In this document: positions 37,432 to 47,522 of the stretch, piece after piece | Numbering within the stretch: position 1 is the stretch's first letter | How the letters are laid out: each line of letters starts with the position of its first letter | DNA from: Thermodesulfobacteriota bacterium | Lineage (GTDB): Bacteria; Desulfobacterota; Desulfarculia; JACQYL01 | Assembly (NCBI GenBank): GCA_963675595.2 | Contig: CAXXLZ010000002.1 | Coordinates: 3,968,001 to 4,032,000 of the forward strand | Direction of reading: 5' to 3' | DNA: 64,000 nucleotides | Position numbers and translations under genes: made by a program | The notes under the pieces: model-generated | Told to the model about the DNA's origin: nothing | Seen by the model: only the letters and a program-made list of their open reading frames with translations | Databases searched by the model: none

Positions 37432-39861
37432 TTAATCGAAGCACGAGGAATCGTCTGCATCGCATCCCACGAAATCCAACTCCACATGGAAGTTTGAGCC
37501 TTTCCCCGGCTCGCTGTCCGCCCACATCTTTCCCCCGAGGAGTTGGGTCAGCCTCAGGGCGATACTGAGGCCGAGTCCCAGCCCGCCGAATTTCCGAGTA
37601 CTTGAGCCGTCGCCCTGGGTAAGTCCCCCAAAAATGAGCTTCAGATTTTCCCGGGAGATGCCGACACCGCTGTCCCTGATCTGAAAATGGAGTCGGACCT
37701 TGTTCTCATCCCGACTCGTGCAGCTCACGGAGATATCCACCGAACCTTTTTCCGTAAACTTCACTGCGTTATAGAGTAGTTTTTCGATCAGGACCGACAG
37801 CTTTTTGAGATCGCCCAGAAGAATGGGAGGAATGTCCGGGGATACCGACGTATTGATCGAGATGCCTTTGAGTCGGGCTTCGTGATCCACCCGGTGCGCC
37901 AACCCGGCAAGCACTGAATGAACGTCGAAAGGCTGTAACTGAACCCCTATCTTTCCGGCTTCCAGATGGCTTAACTCGATCAGGTCGTTGATCATATCGA
38001 GCAGCGAGTGAGCCGAGTCTTGGGCCAATTGGAGCAACTCTCGTTGGTCCGGGGTAAGCCGGGCTTCAAGAATCAGGTCGATCACGCCCATGACGTGGTT
38101 CATGGGAGTCCGAAATTCATGGCTGATGTTGGCCAAGAACTCATTCTTTGCTCGATTGGACGACTCAGCCGCGTCTTTGGCCCGAATGAGGGATTCTTCC
38201 GCTTCCTTTTTCAGAGTGACGTCTTCCGTGATTCCTGCGACTCGATAAGGCTGTCCCGATTCGCCCAATACGGGAAAAGCCCTATCCTGAATCCAACGGA
38301 TCGTGCCGTCCGGACGGCGGATTCGATAAGTTTCATCATACCTGCCCTCGACCTGAAGATTGACGGCCGATTCGCGCACCCGTTCCCGGTCCTCGGGCAC
38401 AACAGCGTCAAGCCAGGAAGCCGGATTCGCATACAGGCTGTCGACCGAACGGCCCCATATCCGTTCATAGGCGGGCGACACATAAATCGTCCGGTTATTT
38501 TTCAAACTCGTCAGCCAGAACACTTGCTCGATGTTTTCCGCAAGTTGGCGGAATCGCTCTTCACTTTCGCGCAGAGCCTTTTCAGACTCTTTGCGTGCGG
38601 TGATATCTTCGGCGAAACCTTCCAGGATGGTGGATTTTCCTTCCGAATCTCTGACGAACCTCAGTTGGAGCAGGGCGGACCAGACTTCTCCGTTTTTTCG
38701 GAGCAACTCCACCTCCGCGCTGTGGACTCCTTTCTTCTCCGAAATTCTTAGGATCATTTCCCGTCGTTGTTCAGGATCGTCATAAACCTGTTGGGCAATA
38801 TCCTTGATTTCGCTTATGACCTCCTCCGGCCCTGAGTAGCCCAGCATGGTTGCGAAGGCCGGGTTAACGTTAAGGAACTTTCCCTGAAGTGTTGTCTGGA
38901 ATATCCCCACGGCGCCGTATTCAAAGAGGGAGCGGTACTTCTCCTCGGATCGGCGGAGAGCCTCTTCGGCTCGTTTTCGTTCACTAATATCCCGATAGAC
39001 AAAAAAGAACGTGGTCTTTCCGCCCATATCCATCGATCGTGCGCTGATTTCCACCGGAACTTGTCGTCCATCGGGACGCAATACCAGAGTCTCCATCCGG
39101 GCAACTCGCCCGGTTCGGTTTTGGACGCGAAGGGGATCAAGAAATTCTCGTTGAATTCTCTCTCGTTCGTCCTCAGGATGGATTTCGGATTGATGTAAGC
39201 CTACGATATCGTCGTAGGAGCTCTCCAGGAGTTGAACGGCGGTGGGGTTGAGATGAAGGATGCTCAATGTGACCGGGTCCGTCAGGAAGAGGGCGTCGGG
39301 CGCTTCGTCGAAAACGGTACGGTATCGCCTTTCCGCTTCATACAATCGACGTTCGATTTGTGCGCGCTTCTTGATTTCGTTGACCAGTTGTTCGTTCGTC
39401 TTTTTCAGCTCGGCCGTGCGCTCTTCCACCCTCCGTTCCAGATTGGCGGACAGTTCACGATTTTCGGCCTGGAGTCTCTGTTTCTCCAGAGCACTTTCGA
39501 CCACGTTCAGGAGTTCGGTTTGTCCCGACAAAGGTTTGGTGAGGTAGTGGAAAGCACCGGCTTCCCTTAAACTGCTCACAGCTTCCTGAACACCGCCGAG
39601 TCCGGAAAGAACTATGAACTGGATGTCCGGGTCCAATTGCCGAATTTCCCGCATGAGCTCGAGACCGTTCATGCCCGGCATGACCAGGTCGGTGATCACC
39701 AAATGGAAGGAGTGGGAAGAGAACAAGTTCAGGGCCTGGAGGCCGTCGTCGGCGGTCTCCACTTCGAACCCTCGTTGAGAAAGTATGTTCCGTAAATACC
39801 TTCTCGGTTCGATCTCGTCGTCAATTACAAGGATTCGAGGGCGCAACGAGCACTTCCCCAT
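37432..39861 (-). CDS. Hybrid sensor histidine kinase (N-terminal receiver, 3 PAS domains, HisKA, HATPase)
   Basis: RILVIDDE...TDLVMPGMNG...YLTKP; three PAS/PAC repeats (DISERK, DITARK, DVTLKK); ISHEFRTPMN, NAVKFT, DSGVGI, GGLGLGLSI; no TM segment. Confidence 0.93.
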   Translation of the reverse strand: MGKCSLRPRILVIDDEIEPRRYLRNILSQRGFEVETADDGLQALNLFSSHSFHLVITDLVMPGMNGLELMREIRQLDPDIQFIVLSGLGGVQEAVSSLREAGAFHYLTKPLSGQTELLNVVESALEKQRLQAENRELSANLERRVEERTAELKKTNEQLVNEIKKRAQIERRLYEAERRYRTVFDEAPDALFLTDPVTLSILHLNPTAVQLLESSYDDIVGLHQSEIHPEDERERIQREFLDPLRVQNRTGRVARMETLVLRPDGRQVPVEISARSMDMGGKTTFFFVYRDISERKRAEEALRRSEEKYRSLFEYGAVGIFQTTLQGKFLNVNPAFATMLGYSGPEEVISEIKDIAQQVYDDPEQRREMILRISEKKGVHSAEVELLRKNGEVWSALLQLRFVRDSEGKSTILEGFAEDITARKESEKALRESEERFRQLAENIEQVFWLTSLKNNRTIYVSPAYERIWGRSVDSLYANPASWLDAVVPEDRERVRESAVNLQVEGRYDETYRIRRPDGTIRWIQDRAFPVLGESGQPYRVAGITEDVTLKKEAEESLIRAKDAAESSNRAKNEFLANISHEFRTPMNHVMGVIDLILEARLTPDQRELLQLAQDSAHSLLDMINDLIELSHLEAGKIGVQLQPFDVHSVLAGLAHRVDHEARLKGISINTSVSPDIPPILLGDLKKLSVLIEKLLYNAVKFTEKGSVDISVSCTSRDENKVRLHFQIRDSGVGISRENLKLIFGGLTQGDGSSTRKFGGLGLGLSIALRLTQLLGGKMWADSEPGKGSNFHVELDFVGCDADDSSCFD

Positions 39862-40238
39862 CGGTTTCCCCGACCCTTGGGGCAATGGTGGCGAAGCGCA
39901 TTACCCTAAGCGTGAGTCGCCGGGAAACCGACTCAATCTTGTTTAAGAGAATGTTACGATTGTATCCTTTCGTTTGATATGTTTCCAATCGTATTTGCCG
40001 GTTTTCCGTCGTGAACACCTTGGGTTACCGGCTCATTGATATCTGAACGCGCAAGACCGCATGTGCGGGCCCTTATGTAATCGATGGGCGTCCGTTACCG
40101 CTTCAATGGGATGTCCTTCGCGATTGAAGTGTCGGAACTTCGGGAGTCGACGAGAAGCATACTTGGATTCTTCGTGGACATCCGTCACGCTTGGCAGTAT
40201 ATTGATTGCACGATTTCCAAGGCAGGAGGTTTCAGACC

Positions 40239-41316: not shown

Positions 41317-41565
41317 AATGCTCCTCCTTTTCTTCGCCCGCATTGTATCGTTTCCGGGTTCCAAGATAAACCCGTCGGGTTCGCGTGAGCCTGTCGGCAC
41401 ATGTCGGGCAAGGGAGGCGGCGTCCGGTCTTTTCAATCGTCCAAGACGCGGGCGCTGGGACAAATGAATACGGGCCGACCCGATAAACCGTGCCGGTTGA
41501 CGGGCGGTCCCGTTTGCTTTACGTAATCAGGCATTGTGTGAAAGGAATTGGTAAAGACGACGAAC

Positions 41566-42342
41566 ATGGAACAATGGATCGACACACACGCCCATCTGGA
41601 CATGGAACCTTTCCTGGAGGATTTGGAACAGGTCATCGACAGAGCCCGGATGACGGGCGTCAAAGGAATCATTTCAGTGGGCTCGGATATTGCCTCAAGT
41701 AAAAGGGCCGTAAGCATCGCCGGACAATACGGTATGGTCAAAGCGGCAGTGGGAGTGCATCCTCATGAGGCCTGCAAGGGCGGCCGGACGGAAGAACTGG
41801 AACGCCTGCTGAAGGAGGCCGAGGTTCTGGCCGTCGGCGAGATGGGATTGGATTATTTCTACAACCATTCCGAGCGGGAGGAACAGCTTGAAGTGTTCCG
41901 GATGCAGGTGGAACTGGCCGGCGACGTCGGGAAACCAATCATCGTGCACGTGAGGGACGCTCATGACGACGCCGTGGAAATCCTCCGCGGCGCGGGGAAT
42001 GGGAAGGTGCGCGGAGTGATTCACTGTTTCACCGGCGGTCCCGAGGACCTGCACTCCTACCTGGAAATGGGATTCTATATTTCCTTCGCCGGTATCGTCA
42101 CATTCAAGAAGGCATCCGAGCTCCGCGATGCTGCGGCCATGGTCCCGATGGATCGCTTGCTCGTGGAAACGGATGCGCCTTACTTGGCTCCGGTTCCCAT
42201 GCGAGGCAAACGCAATGAGCCGGCGTTCGTGGTCCATACGGGAGCAGCCTTGGCGGAAGTGCTCGGCGTTTCCTCCGAGGAACTTGCGAGCCGAACTACG
42301 GCCAACGCGGATTCACTCTTCAAACCGGGGTCATGGGCGTGA
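41566..42342 (+). CDS. tatD: TatD-family deoxyribonuclease
   Basis: IDTHAHLD, AVGVHPH, AVGEMGLDY, IVHVRDA, VIHCFTG, LVETDAPYLAPVPMRGKRNEP. Confidence 0.95.
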   Translation: MEQWIDTHAHLDMEPFLEDLEQVIDRARMTGVKGIISVGSDIASSKRAVSIAGQYGMVKAAVGVHPHEACKGGRTEELERLLKEAEVLAVGEMGLDYFYNHSEREEQLEVFRMQVELAGDVGKPIIVHVRDAHDDAVEILRGAGNGKVRGVIHCFTGGPEDLHSYLEMGFYISFAGIVTFKKASELRDAAAMVPMDRLLVETDAPYLAPVPMRGKRNEPAFVVHTGAALAEVLGVSSEELASRTTANADSLFKPGSWA

Positions 42343-42947
42343 GATCGGAGCCTCTTTTCGTCCTGGCTTCCGGCTCACCCCGGCGCAAAGAGCTCTTGGC
42401 GCGCATGGGCTTCGATTTTGAAGTGCACCCCGCCGAATGCGATGAGAGACCGCGTTCCGGAGAACCTGCGGAGGACTACGCAAGGCGGATGGCCAAGGAA
42501 AAGGCGGAAGCGGTTACTTCGCTTCTGCCTTCTCGCTGGGTGTTGGCCGCGGACACCGTGGTGGTGGTGGACGGTGCGATCCTCGGAAAACCCGGAGACG
42601 AGAATGAAGCGGCGGCCATGATCGCGACGCTGGCGGGAAAGACTCACTCGGTAATCACTTCCTACTGCTGGTCTCATGGACGCCGTGGAACGGTTCGCGT
42701 GTGTTCCGTGAAGAGCCTTGTAGAGTTCAAGCCCTTGGATTCGGGCGAAATAGGACGCTATGTGGATACCGGCGAACCCATGGACAAAGCCGGCGCTTAC
42801 GCGGTGCAGGGTCTGGGGGCATTCATGGTAAGGGCGGTCCACGGCTCCTACAGCAATGTCGTTGGTCTGCCTTTGTGCGAGGTGATCGACACTATGGTGG
42901 AACTGGGCGTCATACCCGAGTTCCCTGTTTCTTTCGATCGGAAATAG
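42333..42947 (+). CDS. maf: Maf-family nucleoside triphosphate pyrophosphatase
   Basis: LASGSPRRKELL, AADTVV, ILGKP, EPMDKAGAYAVQG, GSYSNVVGLP. Confidence 0.96.
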   Translation: MGVRSEPLFVLASGSPRRKELLARMGFDFEVHPAECDERPRSGEPAEDYARRMAKEKAEAVTSLLPSRWVLAADTVVVVDGAILGKPGDENEAAAMIATLAGKTHSVITSYCWSHGRRGTVRVCSVKSLVEFKPLDSGEIGRYVDTGEPMDKAGAYAVQGLGAFMVRAVHGSYSNVVGLPLCEVIDTMVELGVIPEFPVSFDRK

Positions 42948-43019
42948 AGCCTTTTCGGCCCCCCCGACTTTTGCCGATTTCGAGTAACCCTCGGCCGGGC
43001 GGCGGGGCTTGGAGTGTGC

Positions 43020-43712
43020 ATGTCTTCCATCGCGGACAACCTGCGGCTAGTGATGGACCGGATCGCGAGAGCCGCTTCAAAATCCGGACGCGCGCCCGAG
43101 GCGGTCCGACTTGTGGCAGTGAGTAAGACCGTTTCTCCCGAGCGGATTCAAGAGGCCGTGAACGCCGGGGTCCAAATACTGGGGGAGAACTATCTACAAG
43201 AAGCCCAGGAGAAAATGCCGAAGGTGTCCGGTCCCGTATGCTGGCATTTCATCGGACATCTTCAGTCCAGGAAGGCCAAAGACGTGGTTCGCGATTTTGA
43301 TCTGATTCATTCGGTGGACAGCGTCAAACTCGCTCGCGAAATCGACCGGCGGGCCGAGGCTCTCGGTAAGACCATGGATATCCTGGTTCAGGTCAACGTG
43401 TCCGGAGAGGAATCCAAGTTCGGCTTGGACCCTGAGGATATCGAACCCTTCCTGGACCAAGCCCGGGGGCTGGAGCACGTTGTGATATCGGGTCTAATGA
43501 CCATGCCGCCCTTTTTCGACCAGCCCGATCGTGTCCGGCCGTATTTCGCGAAATTAAGGGAACTTTCTCGGCGAGCGGCGGACCGTAACCGGGAGGGCAA
43601 CATCCGCCTCACGGAGCTGTCCATGGGGATGAGCGGTGACTTTGAAGCCGCTGTTGAAGAAGGAGCCACATTGGTTCGAGTGGGAACCCTGTTGTTCGGC
43701 TCCAGAACCTGA
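43020..43712 (+). CDS. yggS: PLP homeostasis protein YggS
   Basis: LVAVSKT, GENYLQE, WHFIGHLQS, IHSVDS, GLMTMPP, LSMGMSGDF, ATLVRVGT. Confidence 0.96.
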   Translation: MSSIADNLRLVMDRIARAASKSGRAPEAVRLVAVSKTVSPERIQEAVNAGVQILGENYLQEAQEKMPKVSGPVCWHFIGHLQSRKAKDVVRDFDLIHSVDSVKLAREIDRRAEALGKTMDILVQVNVSGEESKFGLDPEDIEPFLDQARGLEHVVISGLMTMPPFFDQPDRVRPYFAKLRELSRRAADRNREGNIRLTELSMGMSGDFEAAVEEGATLVRVGTLLFGSRT

Positions 43713-43733: not shown

Positions 43734-46700
43734 ATGACGAACAAACGAGAGCTTAGGGCGTATCTCCTATCTCACGGGGATATCCCCGACGATTTGGTTG
43801 ACGAGCACCTGTCTCGATTGGGCGCTCGTTACTTCGAGAGATTTACTGAAGTCGAGATTCGGAGCCATTTGTTGGGGTTATCCGATCTGACTCCGGACAA
43901 ACCGGGTGAAGTCCTGGTAAGGCGTCTCGGGGACGGCAGGACGGACTGCACGGTGCTCGGATTTGATTATCCTCACCTTTTCTCTCTCCTGACCGGCATC
44001 CTGGCGGCGCTGGGCTTTAATATACTGATCGGAGACGTGTTCACCTACCTGCCGGCGGCATCGCATCCTTCTCCTTCACAACGTGGCCCCCAGCGGAGAA
44101 GGCTTTCTCCGGATCCTTTGAAACGGCGTCGCATCGTGGATTATTTTTCCGGAGAGGCGGCGTCCTCCGTGCCCTTTGAAGTCTGGTCGGATCAGCTTTC
44201 CGGAACCGTGGTGGAGGTGCTGAAGCTGTTGGAGGCGGGAGACGACGACTCCGCGGCACGAGCCAAGCGGACGGTCAACGAGATGGTGGTCCGGATGTTG
44301 GCCGGTCGAAAATTCAGTTCGAAGCCTATTCTGTATCCCGTACAGATCGACATCGACAACAGCGATCCGGCGGTGACTTCCTTGAAAGTGATTTCGCAGG
44401 ATACCGTGGCATTTCTCTATACCTTGTCGAGCGCGCTTTCCCTTCATCGGATTTCCATCGAAAGCGTACGGATACGGACTCTCGAAGGTCGAGTGGAGGA
44501 CGAAATCGACTTCGTGGATTCTCGAGGTGATAAAATCGAGGATCCTGGAATTCTCAGCCAGATCCAACTTTCCGTGGTGCTCACCAAGCAGTTCACCTAT
44601 TTCCTGGAATCCGCTCCCGATCCTTACGCCGCTCTTAGCCGTTTCGGCCGCCTGGCTGAAGAGGTGCTCCTCATGTCCAAAGAAGGACAATGGGTCCAGC
44701 TGCTGTCCAATCCAACGATCCTGAAAGAGCTGGCAAGGCTGCTGGGAGCGAGCGATTATCTCTGGGAAGATTTCATTCGACGCCACTACGAAGTGGTCTT
44801 GCCCATGTTGGAGCAGGATGGGAAGGATCAGGATTTCAGTACTCCGGCCGAGCTGCTCGGACGCAGTATGGATGAGGCTCTACGGGGTGCGATTGAGCCG
44901 GCGGAACAGCGACGCCGACTGAATGAATTCAAGGATCGAGAGATCTTTCTGATCGACCTCGATCATATCAGGGGAAGGCTGGACTACCGTTCTTTCGCCG
45001 AAAAGCTGACCGTGTTGGCGGAACAGGTCATCGGCACCGCCGCACGCCTCGCCTATGGGCATTTGGCCCGACGGCACGGCATTCCGAGAACTGTCGGAGG
45101 CATGGAGGCCCAATTTTCCGTCCTCGGTTTGGGAAAGCTCGGAGGGGCCGCTCTGGGATATGCGTCGGACGTGGAATTGTTGTTCGTTTACAGCGACAAC
45201 GGGGCCACGGATGGAGAGTCCCCTCTCGATAATGCCGAGTTCTTTGATCGATTGGCCAAGGGGGTGGTTCAAATCATCGAGGCCAAGCAACAAGGAATTT
45301 TTCACATCGACCTCCGACTCCGACCTTACGGGAACCAGAGCCCTTTGGCCTGCAGCCTGGAGAATTTCTATCGCTATTACGTCAAAGACGGGCCGGCCCA
45401 CTCCTATGAGCGATTGGCCCTGGTACGCCTACGGACCGTGGCGGGCAACGCGGCGCTGGGGGCGCGAGTGGAACGCTTGCGTGACGAGATCGTCTACAGT
45501 TCGGCCGCCATCGACTTCGATGAACTTCGTGAGTTGAGGAAGAAGCAATTCGAGAGCAAAAGCTCCGGGGAACAGCTTAACGCGAAGTTTTGCCCGGGCG
45601 GATTGGTGGATTTGGAGTATGACGTACAGATGCTTCAAGTCATGTACGGCGGAGGAGTGTCCGAACTGCGAACTCCAAGAGTTCACCAAGCGTTGCTGGT
45701 CCTCGCGGACTTGGAGATTTTGGCCCCCCAGGAGGCCAAAGGGTTGATCGAGGCGTATGGATTCCTTCGGGAACTGATCAACGGTCTGCGGATGCTTCGC
45801 GGGTCCGCCGAAGACTTGCTGCTTCCCCCCACGGACTCACAGGAATTCGCACACCTTGCCCGGCGAATGGGTTATCGCCGAGGCGGCGCCTTGGATGCCG
45901 CCGAAGAGCTTCGTCTGGACTTTGAAACCCACACGGCCGCGGTGCGAGCGTTCGCTGAGAAGCATTTCGGTCGGGATTCCTTGCCTCGTCCCCACGCGGG
46001 GAGCGTTGCGGATCTCGTGCTTTCGGCCGATCCCGCCGAGGAACTTCGAAACCGGGTTCTTACGGAAGCCGGTTTCTCCAATCCCGGTCGGGCTTACGTG
46101 AATTTGCGAAGCTTGGCGGGAGAGGGAGGCAGCCGAAAGAACGCGTTCGCTCGCTTGGCCGTGCTGGCCGTAGACATTTTGCGAAACACTCCGGATCCGG
46201 ACATGGCTCTCAATAACCTCGAGCGTTATATCCGTATTGTGGCCAGTGCCGAATCTCGTTTCAATACGTTGTTGTCGCAACCCATGCGTCTTGAAATCCT
46301 CCTGGGAATCTTTTCCGCGAGTCAGTTCTTGGCGGATACCGTAATCCGGCATCCGGGGTTCATGGACTGGGTCACCGTGCCGGAGAACCTTTACGAAACC
46401 CGAAAACGCAATGAAATGGAGGAGGAACTTCGCTCCTTTACTTTGAGCGGCGCGGGCCGAAAAGAATGGCTTAAGGAGGTTCGGCGGTTCCGAAGGAGAG
46501 AGATTCTGCGTATCGGGACGAGAGATATGGTCCTCGGCGTGGTGACTCCGGTGGTCACTCACGAACTTTCCATTCTCGCAGAAGCCCTGGTAAAGGAGTG
46601 CCTCTCCTGGATATGGAGGGAAACCGCAGAGGAAGCCGGCAGGGCAGATGACTTGTGTGTGCTGGAGAACCGTCTGTGCATTGTGGCCATGGGAAAACTG

Positions 46701-47522
46701 GGTGGGGACGAGCTGAATTATAGTTCGGATATTGATCTGATCGCCTTCTTTGATGATTCCACCGGAATCGGACCCAACGACAAGAAGCTGTACTCCGGAG
46801 TGGTTGAACGTCTGAGAGCCGACCTCTCGGACCATACTGAGGAAGGCTACGCCTATCGGGTGGATTTTCGGTTAAGGCCCTATGGGAGGGCCGGTGAACT
46901 GGTGCCGTCGCTCTCCAGCTTGGTGGACTACTATCTCAACAAAGCATCGGCATGGGAGGTGCAAGCCCTTCTAAAGGCCCGTCCCGTGGCCGGCAATGCC
47001 GCACTCGGAGAAGACCTGATGGCTAGGCTTAAACCGGTTCTTCTCCAGGAGAGGAACCGGGAGTCCGTAGTGGGTTCCATCGAAAAAATGCGGCGGGCCG
47101 CCATAAAGCAATCGGCGGGCTTCATGGGAGGAGGCATCGACGTCAAGACCGCCGCCGGAGGAATTCGGGATATCGAGTTCCTGGTCCAGGGGCTGCAACT
47201 GCTGTACGCTTCGGAAAGGCCCGGCATTCTCACCGGGAACACGCTTCGAGGACTCGACGCCTTGGTGGACGCCGGGTTGTTGCCCCCTGAACAGGGGGCC
47301 CGTCTTGAAGGCGGTTATGTGTTTCTCAGAAGGGTCGAACACTGTCTTCAAATTATGGAAGATCTTCAGGTCCATGACGTACCGAATGAGCGGGAAGCAT
47401 TGGAACCCCTGGCAAAAAGAGTCTTGGGCAAAGATTGCACGGCGGAGGCTTTCCTGGAAACATTGCACGCCTGTATGGAAGAAGTCCGGGAATCCTATAT
47501 TGAAATCTTGGTGGAGGGATGA
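43734..47522 (+). CDS. glnE: Glutamine synthetase adenylyltransferase/removase (GlnE family) with N-terminal ACT domains
   Basis: Two NTase modules: GKLGGAALGYASDVELLF...IDLRLRPYG and MGKLGGDELNYSSDIDLI...YRVDFRLRPYG; about 290-aa N-terminal extension with two ACT-like repeats. Confidence 0.9.
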   Translation: MTNKRELRAYLLSHGDIPDDLVDEHLSRLGARYFERFTEVEIRSHLLGLSDLTPDKPGEVLVRRLGDGRTDCTVLGFDYPHLFSLLTGILAALGFNILIGDVFTYLPAASHPSPSQRGPQRRRLSPDPLKRRRIVDYFSGEAASSVPFEVWSDQLSGTVVEVLKLLEAGDDDSAARAKRTVNEMVVRMLAGRKFSSKPILYPVQIDIDNSDPAVTSLKVISQDTVAFLYTLSSALSLHRISIESVRIRTLEGRVEDEIDFVDSRGDKIEDPGILSQIQLSVVLTKQFTYFLESAPDPYAALSRFGRLAEEVLLMSKEGQWVQLLSNPTILKELARLLGASDYLWEDFIRRHYEVVLPMLEQDGKDQDFSTPAELLGRSMDEALRGAIEPAEQRRRLNEFKDREIFLIDLDHIRGRLDYRSFAEKLTVLAEQVIGTAARLAYGHLARRHGIPRTVGGMEAQFSVLGLGKLGGAALGYASDVELLFVYSDNGATDGESPLDNAEFFDRLAKGVVQIIEAKQQGIFHIDLRLRPYGNQSPLACSLENFYRYYVKDGPAHSYERLALVRLRTVAGNAALGARVERLRDEIVYSSAAIDFDELRELRKKQFESKSSGEQLNAKFCPGGLVDLEYDVQMLQVMYGGGVSELRTPRVHQALLVLADLEILAPQEAKGLIEAYGFLRELINGLRMLRGSAEDLLLPPTDSQEFAHLARRMGYRRGGALDAAEELRLDFETHTAAVRAFAEKHFGRDSLPRPHAGSVADLVLSADPAEELRNRVLTEAGFSNPGRAYVNLRSLAGEGGSRKNAFARLAVLAVDILRNTPDPDMALNNLERYIRIVASAESRFNTLLSQPMRLEILLGIFSASQFLADTVIRHPGFMDWVTVPENLYETRKRNEMEEELRSFTLSGAGRKEWLKEVRRFRRREILRIGTRDMVLGVVTPVVTHELSILAEALVKECLSWIWRETAEEAGRADDLCVLENRLCIVAMGKLGGDELNYSSDIDLIAFFDDSTGIGPNDKKLYSGVVERLRADLSDHTEEGYAYRVDFRLRPYGRAGELVPSLSSLVDYYLNKASAWEVQALLKARPVAGNAALGEDLMARLKPVLLQERNRESVVGSIEKMRRAAIKQSAGFMGGGIDVKTAAGGIRDIEFLVQGLQLLYASERPGILTGNTLRGLDALVDAGLLPPEQGARLEGGYVFLRRVEHCLQIMEDLQVHDVPNEREALEPLAKRVLGKDCTAEAFLETLHACMEEVRESYIEILVEG

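Follow-up and report, generated by a model that had tools for sequence, protein, structure and literature searches.

The 1262-aa protein encoded at positions 43734..47522 of the window (the whole stretch of DNA analyzed here, 64,000 nucleotides) is, judging from its sequence, most probably a bifunctional glutamine synthetase (GS) adenylyltransferase/adenylyl-removing enzyme (GlnE) in which the two catalytic modules stand in reversed order behind a GlnD-type ACT-ACT pair. GlnE is a textbook bifunctional switch, and models of the cross-talk between its adenylyl-removing (AR) and adenylyltransferase (AT) activities start from a protein that runs AR, central region, AT. For E. coli and H. seropedicae, a 2026 preprint assigns AR to the N-terminal half and AT together with glutamine sensing to the C-terminal half, and places the glutamine site in the central-plus-C-terminal part of GlnE (bioRxiv 10.64898/2026.09.02.748916). 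The RefSeq product name was also used for this assignment of the halves. Where GlnE binds glutamine is still being worked out. Full-text literature searches found no paper on a swapped ACT-ACT-AT-AR layout of GlnE; the layout is widespread yet apparently undescribed.

Gene and domain architecture

The gene comprises the following features (aa positions refer to its translation).

43734..47522, + strand: complete GlnE gene (1262 aa plus stop) in the order ACT-ACT / AT-type module / AR-type module (ORF list, translation)
43734..44633, + strand: GlnD-type sensor region, aa 1-300 (TIGR01693, alignment of the genome's own GlnD to a profile, AlphaFold/Foldseek)
44601..45980, + strand: module M1, aa 290-749, AT-type nucleotidyltransferase plus helical domain (half-profile boundaries; PF03710 155.8 bits, PF08335 66.2 bits)
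45129..45185, + strand: M1 nucleotidyltransferase signature LGKLGGAALGYASDVELLF, aa 466-484, with G467 and D479-V-E481 (motif, conservation)
45297..45326, + strand: M1 IFHIDLRLRP, aa 522-531, with the third carboxylate D526 in IDLRLRP (motif, conservation)
45597..45620, + strand: M1 GGLVDLEY, aa 622-629 (motif)
46179..47519, + strand: AR-type module M2, aa 816-1262, resembling the E. coli N half (half-profile; PF03710 191.8 bits, PF08335 76.9 bits)
46689..46742, + strand: M2 nucleotidyltransferase signature MGKLGGDELNYSSDIDLI / GKLGGDELNYSSDIDL, aa 986-1003, with DxD at D999-I-D1001 (motif)
46845..46880, + strand: M2 motif GYAYRVDFRLRP, aa 1038-1049 (motif)
47157..47189, + strand: M2 GGIRDIEFLVQ, aa 1142-1152 (motif)
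47325..47351, + strand: M2 LRRVEHCLQ, aa 1198-1206 (motif)
47157..47375, + strand: M2 AR-diagnostic residues R1145 (GGIRDIEF), Q1206, Q1212 and H1214 (LRRVEHCLQimedLQvH) (residue frequencies)

Pfam detected two GlnE domains (PF03710) in tandem, each followed by a GlnD_UR_UTase domain (PF08335). The protein scored 660.2 bits against NF008292, the NCBIfam GlnE equivalog (cut-off 487), and the alignment is colinear, with aa 327-1165 on model positions 27-873 of 946. Annotation pipelines thus notice nothing unusual in the order, and swapped proteins are labeled ordinary GlnE because NF008292 is above its cut-off. Compared with canonical GlnE (E. coli glnE b3053, 946 aa; 1v4a for the N half and 3k7d for the C half), the protein shares the two PF03710+PF08335 modules, the NF008292 score above cut-off, and the catalytic Gly and carboxylates. 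However, the canonical order, with the AR-type module in the N-terminal and the AT-type module in the C-terminal half, is reversed here; the protein also has an extra 300-aa GlnD-type ACT pair at the N-terminus, and DxE rather than DxD in the AT module. In organisms with such proteins, an E. coli-style truncation ("delete the N-terminal AR domain," as used to engineer ammonium excretion) would take away the wrong half.

The initial annotation gave the interval 44900-47522, which spans the two catalytic modules and leaves out 1166 bases at the beginning of the gene, where the ACT pair and the first part of module 1 are encoded; all seven motifs quoted there were found in the translated ORF. An assembly artefact was rejected, as the gene is internal to a 4.7-Mb contig and more than 100 homologues share the layout. 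Nearby lie TatD, Maf, and YggS-like genes rather than genes of nitrogen metabolism.

Identity of the two catalytic modules

For the phylogenetic analyses 120 proteins were extracted, 104 of which had exactly two modules; 11 of these 208 modules were shorter than 330 aa and were excluded, leaving 197. The ORF filter gave no ORF for L045, L140, L143, L144, and L146 and the wrong one for L067 and L139, and these were left out. The trees are unrooted and were built without actinobacterial references (Mycobacterium, Corynebacterium, Streptomyces). Among 31 genomes sampled from the phylum of the L045 genome (labeled Bifidobacteriales), GlnE was above cut-off in only 2, both times as a contig-broken permuted form.

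A single branch (SH-like support 98) in the FastTree analysis of the 197 modules parted an AR side, made up of 88 canonical N, 5 insert-class N, and 11 permuted-class C modules including M2, from an AT side with 77 canonical C, 5 insert-class C, and 11 permuted-class N modules including M1. All 165 canonical modules fell on the expected side. The same split was recovered with IQ-TREE (LG+C20+F+G4, 66 modules; SH-aLRT 99), where the ACT-linked AT modules (9 permuted N and 4 insert-class C) formed a clade with support of 99, and their AR partners (9 + 4) grouped with support of 87. A faster LG+G4 tree of 48 rows gave the AR/AT branch a support of 80, with the canonical C module L022_C on the AR side. 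The topology in which all N-position modules form one clade was rejected by the AU test (40 rows, LG+G4; delta lnL 193, p 1.6e-44).

Profiles built from canonical modules only gave the same assignment. M1 scored 312.7 bits with the AT profile and 274.4 with the AR profile (margin -38.3), and M2 scored 423.0 with AR and 381.2 with AT (margin +41.8); these margins of about 40 bits fall well short of the median (145-152 bits) but exceed the smallest value (26-27 bits) among held-out canonical modules, which were correctly classed in 77/77 and 77/77 cases. The AR profile was preferred by all 11 permuted C modules and the AT profile by all 11 permuted N modules, and the five insert-class proteins came out in canonical order.

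Individual residues follow the same pattern. Among the 88 canonical N modules, the diagnostic Arg is present in 100%, Gln at the Q1206 position in 100%, Q1212 in 97%, and H1214 in 76%, while each of the four occurs in at most 10% of the 77 canonical C modules. M2 carries six of nine AR-specific residues and M1 none of the nine. The third Asp of M2 is located in VDFRLRP, and the ELN[YF]SSD[IV]DL form belongs to the N-terminal module in the canonical GlnEs listed. The E. coli GlnE motifs on which the initial annotation relied from recall agree with the K-12 glnE translation, which has MGKLGGGELNFSSDIDLIF / YRVDMRLRP / GGIREIEF in the N half and GKLGGWELGYSSDLDLIF / GGITDIEF in the C half.

Trees, AU test, profiles, and diagnostic residues together bear out the earlier proposal that the halves are swapped, AT first and AR second, with removase-type signatures in the C-terminal half: M2 lies on the canonical N-terminal side. 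In the tree of isolated halves M1 went with canonical AT and M2 with canonical AR, the opposite of the pattern that would speak against a swap. From these sequence comparisons M1, which is E. coli C-terminal-like, is predicted to be an adenylyltransferase, and M2 an adenylyl-removing (phosphorolytic) enzyme.

It might be objected that the order is canonical after all, with M1 as AR and M2 as AT, and that the motif likeness stems from convergence or gene conversion between paralogous halves. The colinear NF008292 alignment would fit this, as would the slightly higher phmmer score of M1 to the E. coli AR structure sequence (136.5 bits to 1v4a versus 126.3 bits to 3k7d). However, M2 is also higher to AR (170.4 versus 155.1 bits), so that pairwise scores do not discriminate between the modules. 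The trees, the AU test, the canonical-only profiles, and the diagnostic residues along the module all disagree with a canonical order, and 11 of 11 proteins of the swapped layout give M1 as AT and M2 as AR. We consider the objection very improbable and take the modules to be in reversed order.

The DxE variant of the AT-type module

Both modules carry the Pol-beta-type signature and the third Asp, M1 with Glu at the second carboxylate. This Glu (D479-V-E481) had been pointed out before, and it is real. The catalytic Gly and the first and third Asp are invariant across all 197 modules compared. The second carboxylate is Glu in 11/11 permuted N modules and 5/5 insert-class C modules, and Asp in 165/165 canonical modules. 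As DxE is fixed in 16/16 ACT-linked AT modules, it is a clade trait and not decay, and reading it as a possible mark of impairment finds no support. The usual notation for the Pol-beta-fold signature is Dh[DE]h, and Glu is presumably tolerated at the second position.

A silent M1 would be the alternative: through DxE the module would have become a regulatory pseudo-nucleotidyltransferase, with the protein effectively monofunctional and the chemistry carried out by M2. The replacement of the second metal-binding Asp, otherwise kept in every canonical module, is consistent with this, and by Pfam M1 is the more divergent module (155.8 versus 191.8 bits). We regard it as improbable, however, since Glu remains a carboxylate that does not vary within the clade and the Gly and the first and third Asp are invariant, a picture suggestive of an active site under purifying selection, and since stand-alone ACT-ACT-AT genes beside AR genes fit two active enzymes.

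The N-terminal ACT pair

The sensor region consists of a helical lead-in, ACT1 (~aa 58-141), a helical linker, and ACT2 (~aa 204-291). It is colinear with the C-terminal ACT1-ACT2 of GlnD: aa 5-270 align to positions 604-835 of 850 in TIGR01693 (GlnD) with an E-value of 7.1e-20, and a profile made from 17 such ACT regions matched residues 632-856 of 865 of the genome's own GlnD (74.5 bits). Pfam ACT (PF01842) aligned to aa 217-277 of ACT2 with 22.6 bits (E 9.3e-5), short of its gathering score of 27, and the Pfam scan of the protein gave no PF01842 match to ACT1. The AlphaFold model of the region (pLDDT 88.2, pTM 0.86) contains two strand/helix units with an ACT-like fold. Foldseek top matches in the PDB include the large GDH 7jsr (L-GDH180; E 1.4e-5) and SerB2 5is2, both of which we take to carry ACT domains, as well as the GL3 ACT-like domain 9c7n and aspartate kinase regulatory chains.

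The first 300 aa thus resemble the last ~230 TIGR01693 positions, but the nucleotidyltransferase and HD domain of GlnD itself are absent, and the pair, C-terminal in GlnD, is N-terminal on GlnE here. The ACT domains of GlnD have been reported to mediate glutamine sensing. By analogy with these homologous domains, the pair is predicted to bind glutamine or another amino-acid signal, and the layout, with swapped halves behind this pair, may give the enzyme a direct readout of nitrogen status.

Distribution and related layouts

The ACT2-AT-AR layout is conserved in several phyla. Homologues are 1247-1316 aa long in 118 of 120 cases among the matches listed. A census with the ACT-pair profile, covering its best 150 cluster representatives, comprised 38 ACT2-AT-AR, 37 ACT2-AT, and 13 AR-ACT2-AT proteins, the remainder being fragments. 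In all 119 classifiable relatives among these representatives an AT-type module comes next after the ACT pair, and this succession is the constant feature across layouts. The ACT-ACT-AT-AR layout with the sensor beside the transferase, as first suggested from the motifs, is supported as an architecture by this constancy and by the GlnD-like character of the pair.

There are two sister layouts. In the AR-ACT-ACT-AT GlnE of Planctomycetota and Chloroflexota (L013, L015, L033, L039, L052) both modules are of the same subfamily as here, the ACT insert between them is homologous to the pair of this protein, and the same DxE is found; the difference is that the pair lies between the modules and AR-then-AT is kept, whereas here ACT-ACT-AT precedes AR. 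In Nitrospirota and Acidobacteriota (L030, L062, L059, L054) an ACT-ACT-AT unit of ~750 aa and an AR-type protein of ~550-590 aa are encoded by two separate genes, not one polypeptide, and in the three Nitrospirota loci (L030, L062, L059) these are divergently transcribed. The AT module of the split system falls in the same clade as that of the present protein (support 100, 48-row LG+G4), but its AR groups with canonical N modules and not with the AR of the fused ACT forms. The ACT-ACT-AT block can stand alone, follow AR, or precede AR. Unexplained N-terminal extensions on the canonical-order GlnEs L065, L049, and L142 matched no Pfam families.

A natural family in which AT carries its own GlnD-type ACT sensor just upstream, and AR lies before, after, or separate from ACT-ACT-AT, is a clean experimental system. 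With it one could study the gating of adenylylation by glutamine and ask if the topology must be fixed for AR/AT cross-talk.

Nitrogen control and proposed mechanism

Under plentiful nitrogen, M1 would adenylylate the loop Tyr of GS with ATP; under scarce nitrogen, M2 would take AMP off GS by phosphorolysis. The ACT pair would sense the amino-acid signal and gate the adjoining AT module. The swap could have originated when the gene split in two, an autonomous ACT-ACT-AT gene and one for AR, which later fused again in the opposite order.

The genome encodes a full GlnD (642.6 bits) adjoining a PII gene, and has four PII matches. The ACT pair is therefore no simple stand-in for the GlnD/PII pathway, and the idea that it replaces GlnD in this genome was rejected. 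GlnD was not found in 7 of the 11 genomes with the permuted form, all seven being Spirochaetota or Lentisphaerota MAGs. The ACT-linked family also hints at GlnD-independent regulation of GS in some phyla. A broader reading is more tentative, and we give it slightly less than even weight: ACT-ACT-AT would be an autonomous, directly glutamine-gated adenylyltransferase, independent of GlnD and PII-UMP where GlnD is not found, with the domain order set by fission and re-fusion and spread across phyla by transfer. If an autonomous glutamine-gated block is indeed present, the family would be a naturally rewired nitrogen sensor, and intramolecular signaling in GlnE would be independent of domain order.

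It is also conceivable that GlnE chemistry was kept in this lineage but directed at another target or signal, for example a non-glutamine ligand. The lack of nitrogen genes next to the gene, its coexistence with a complete GlnD/PII set, and the fact that the ACT ligand is not readable from sequence are compatible with such a change. We think it unlikely, since the GlnE equivalog score is well over cut-off, the gene is the only GlnE in the 6.79-Mb genome, and the ACT pair is specifically GlnD-like. Also against it, a GS-I is encoded in the same genome (G000:C2:2847901-2848995; 447.9 bits to PF00120), and its Tyr loop, DKDIYDLPPEE, presumably matches the E. coli adenylylation-site motif.

Gene and domain architecture

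The glutamine synthetase (GS) adenylyltransferase GlnE of the window is encoded by a single long open reading frame. It is the sole GlnE gene of the genome, and it follows directly, with short gaps or overlaps, on three genes of the same strand:

41548-43712, + strand, genes for a TatD-like DNase, Maf and a YggS-like PLP-binding protein (Ala_racemase_N)
43734-47522, + strand, glnE, 1262 aa

The initial annotation had covered 44900-47522; this interval does lie within the one glnE frame, but the gene starts 1166 bases further upstream. The additional sequence encodes an N-terminal region (aa 1 to about 300) and the start of the first of two nucleotidyltransferase modules, M1 (aa ~290-749) and M2 (aa ~816-1262). 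Two matches each to PF03710 (GlnE nucleotidyltransferase) and PF08335 (GlnD_UR_UTase, helical) were found. The NCBIfam GlnE equivalog NF008292 scored 660.2 bits (cut-off 487); its alignment is colinear and does not discriminate the order of the modules. The motifs from which swapped halves had been proposed were all present at the places given, and the E. coli motifs given for comparison agreed with the translated glnE of E. coli K-12.

Order of the two modules

Simple comparisons of GlnE halves are ambiguous because both halves of any GlnE are paralogues. In phmmer searches against the solved E. coli halves, M1 scored 136.5 bits with the N half (1v4a) and 126.3 with the C half (3k7d), and M2 scored 170.4 and 155.1 bits, respectively; such pairwise scores do not separate the adenylyl-removing (AR, E. 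coli N half) from the adenylylating (AT, E. coli C half) type. Since neither these scores nor the NF008292 alignment discriminate, a wide collection of GlnE proteins was assembled. It comprised 80 loci obtained by scanning species-representative genomes with an alignment of four halves (enriched in M2-like modules, because they were selected as best M2 matches), 8 loci from genomes related to that of the window, 35 spread evenly over the phylum of a Xenorhabdus genome, and E. coli. Seven loci were lost at the ORF filter, and 104 of the 120 extracted proteins had exactly two modules. After exclusion of modules shorter than 330 aa, 197 remained for the tree.

In the FastTree phylogeny, one branch (SH-like support 98) parted an AR set of 88 canonical N, 5 insert-class (AR-ACT-ACT-AT) N and 11 query-like C modules from an AT set of 77 canonical C, 5 insert-class C and 11 query-like N modules. 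All 165 canonical modules fell on the expected side. The same split was recovered by IQ-TREE (LG+C20+F+G4) with 66 modules from 33 proteins, 33 modules on either side, with SH-aLRT 99. In both trees of isolated halves, M1 groups with canonical C modules and M2 with canonical N modules. Forcing all N-position modules into one clade cost 193 log-likelihood units and was rejected (AU test, p 1.6e-44; 40 rows, LG+G4). When split-gene modules were added, M1 and M2 stayed in unchanged clades of a 48-row LG+G4 tree, in which the deep AR/AT branch had a support of only 80 and one canonical C module (L022_C) fell on the AR side.

Profiles built only from canonical modules (88 N and 77 C) gave M2 423.0 bits as AR against 381.2 as AT, and M1 274.4 as AR against 312.7 as AT. 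The order was reversed in 11/11 query-like proteins and canonical in 5/5 insert-class proteins. Held-out canonical modules were correctly assigned in five-fold cross-validation (77/77 and 77/77), with median margins of 145-152 bits and minima of 26-27 bits; the margins of the query, about 40 bits, are therefore modest, yet within the correct range. Nine residues are conserved in canonical N modules but seldom present in canonical C modules; of these, M2 carries six (R1042, P1101, R1145, Q1206, Q1212 and H1214) and M1 none. The LQ..D.Q.H motif singled out in the initial annotation proved to be part of this AR signature. Profiles and diagnostic residues, both independent of tree search, agree with the trees. 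Taken with the AU test, these sequence comparisons bear out the proposed swap and strongly support orthology of M1 with AT-type and of M2 with AR-type modules.

N-terminal ACT pair

Residues 1-270 align with the C-terminal end of GlnD (TIGR01693 positions 604-835 of 850, E 7.1e-20). A profile of 17 such N-terminal regions was colinear with residues 632-856 of the genome's own 865-aa GlnD (74.5 bits). The Pfam ACT match (aa 217-277) is weak and stays under the gathering score, so membership in the ACT family rests on GlnD homology and on the fold. An AlphaFold model from the 17-region alignment (pLDDT 88.2, pTM 0.86) has two strand/helix units with long helices between them. The PDB entries that Foldseek ranked among the closest to the model include the GL3 ACT-like domain, regulatory chains of aspartate kinase, M. 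smegmatis large glutamate dehydrogenase and SerB2; the last two proteins carry ACT domains. Reversed module order and a GlnD-type sensor mark the query as a genuine, conserved variant of a known enzyme.

Layouts within the family

The 300-aa ACT region lies between the modules in proteins of Planctomycetota and Chloroflexota (loci L013, L015, L033, L039 and L052; also L020), and forms the N-terminal part of ACT-ACT-AT proteins (about 750 aa) that are encoded by genes of their own. Separate genes for the two modules were found at four loci, and may represent a natural 'unfused' state of the system:

L030:1455-5383, L062:1428-5467 and L059:2-3938, Nitrospirota, head-to-head, AR-type (~550-590 aa) and ACT-ACT-AT (~750 aa) genes
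L054:3761-7760, Acidobacteriota, convergent, AR and ACT-ACT-AT genes with ~640 bases between them

One clade unites the AT modules of every ACT-bearing form (support 99 in the 66-module IQ-TREE; 100 in the 48-row tree, split forms included), and a second one the AR modules of both fused ACT forms (87 and 96, respectively). A search with the ACT-pair profile over 1.84 billion cluster representatives gave 353 proteins at E <= 1e-30, of which the best 150 were classified.

Table. Layouts among the best 150 of 353 proteins with the ACT pair
ACT2-AT-AR, 1194-1349 aa: 38
ACT2-AT, 672-999 aa: 37
AR-ACT2-AT: 13
Fragments consistent with one of these three: rest

Since the module after the ACT pair was of the AT type in 119 of 119 cases among these 150 (partial modules being less surely classified), the succession of ACT pair and AT module is the invariant, with the position of AR free. 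A single protein was classified as AT-ACT2-AT.

Several irregular loci were also observed. The open frame L010:2147-5365 (Victivallales) has only the second ACT domain before AT (its aa 9-110 correspond to aa 198-300 of the query), owing either to a truncated N-terminus or to an upstream frameshift. Permuted GlnE genes of genomes G042 and G112 (L116, L117, L120, L121) are cut by contig ends, with ACT-ACT-AT at one edge and AR at another. In Bryobacterales, Solibacteraceae and Acidobacteriaceae MAGs (L023, L025, L064, L074), canonical GlnE appears split between AR and AT into two overlapping frames, probably through frameshifts or assembly errors of long-read MAGs. Three canonical-order proteins are extended at the N-terminus by 310-420 aa; Pfam gave no match to these stretches (E <= 0.001), which may be other unrecognised sensor domains:

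L065:1238-2497, Magnetococcales MAG
L049:3131-4060, Planctomycetaceae MAG
L142:1449-2633, proteobacterial genome G057

Active sites

The signature Gly and the first and third Asp are invariant in 197/197 modules. At the second carboxylate, 165/165 canonical modules and all 16 AR-type modules of ACT-bearing proteins have Asp, and all 16 ACT-linked AT modules have Glu. In the query, this Glu is E481 of M1, and M2 has D999 and D1001. The pol-beta fold probably accepts Glu at this position. That a conservative change is fixed in several phyla speaks for a slightly altered metal site that still works, and against decay.

Proposed activities and origin

In canonical GlnE, AMP is removed by the N half and attached by the C half, and the central-plus-C-terminal part is where glutamine acts, according to a preprint (bioRxiv 10.64898/2026.09.02.748916). 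The RefSeq product name of E. coli GlnE agrees with this assignment of activities. The halves were reportedly the subject of original truncation work in E. coli. By homology, we infer that M1 would adenylylate the Tyr in the GS loop, that M2 would take AMP off GS by phosphorolysis, and that the ACT pair would bind glutamine or a related signal and gate the neighbouring AT module. The swap could have arisen if the gene first split into an ACT-ACT-AT and an AR gene and the two later fused again.

Full-text search, which excludes subscription journals and database architecture pages, gave no paper on GlnE with ACT domains. GlnE with the word ACT returned papers on other subjects among the matches listed, by title and start of abstract; by title, none of those on GS adenylyltransferase and domain architecture concerned an ACT-bearing GlnE. 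A term search of the text of a nucleotidyltransferase-fold classification (PMC2794190) found neither GlnE nor ACT domains.

Genomic setting and nitrogen genes

The TatD-like, Maf and YggS-like genes may form one operon with glnE. Downstream, on the opposite strand, are a periplasmic-binding-protein gene and a rhodanese gene; no nitrogen genes were found near glnE. One more gene was noted further upstream:

37432-39885, - strand, hybrid sensor kinase, 817 aa, with a receiver domain, several PAS domains, HisKA and HATPase_c

Elsewhere, the genome encodes a full GlnD (642.6 bits) adjoining a PII gene, the two spanning G000:C2:1748023-1751167, and has three further PII matches. Two PII genes adjoin each other on contig 1 (G000:C1:1528162-1528897), and this pair may be nitrogenase-linked. 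One of the two GS genes (G000:C2:2847901-2848995) has the loop DKDIYDLPPEE, presumably a match to the E. coli GS adenylylation site. GlnD is present in 4/11 genomes with the permuted form (the window's genome, G001, G002 and a Fibrobacterota MAG) and in 4/5 insert-class genomes; at E <= 1e-20 it was not found in five Spirochaetota and two Lentisphaerota permuted-form MAGs, which may be incomplete.

Distribution

Among the best 120 homologues listed, 118 are 1247-1316 aa long with at least 98% query coverage, and come from MAGs labelled Deltaproteobacteria or Thermodesulfobacteriota; the remaining two have lengths of only 1085 and 1199 aa. Proteins laid out like the query were found in Spirochaetota, Lentisphaerota and Fibrobacterota as well. 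Within the window's class, GlnE was not found in 32 of 41 genomes. The remaining nine have frames of 1269-1343 aa (three genomes of the window's own family) or 931-1020 aa (six genomes of other families). In the phylum of the MAG with locus L045, labelled Bifidobacteriales, GlnE above the cut-off was present in only 2 of the 31 genomes sampled.
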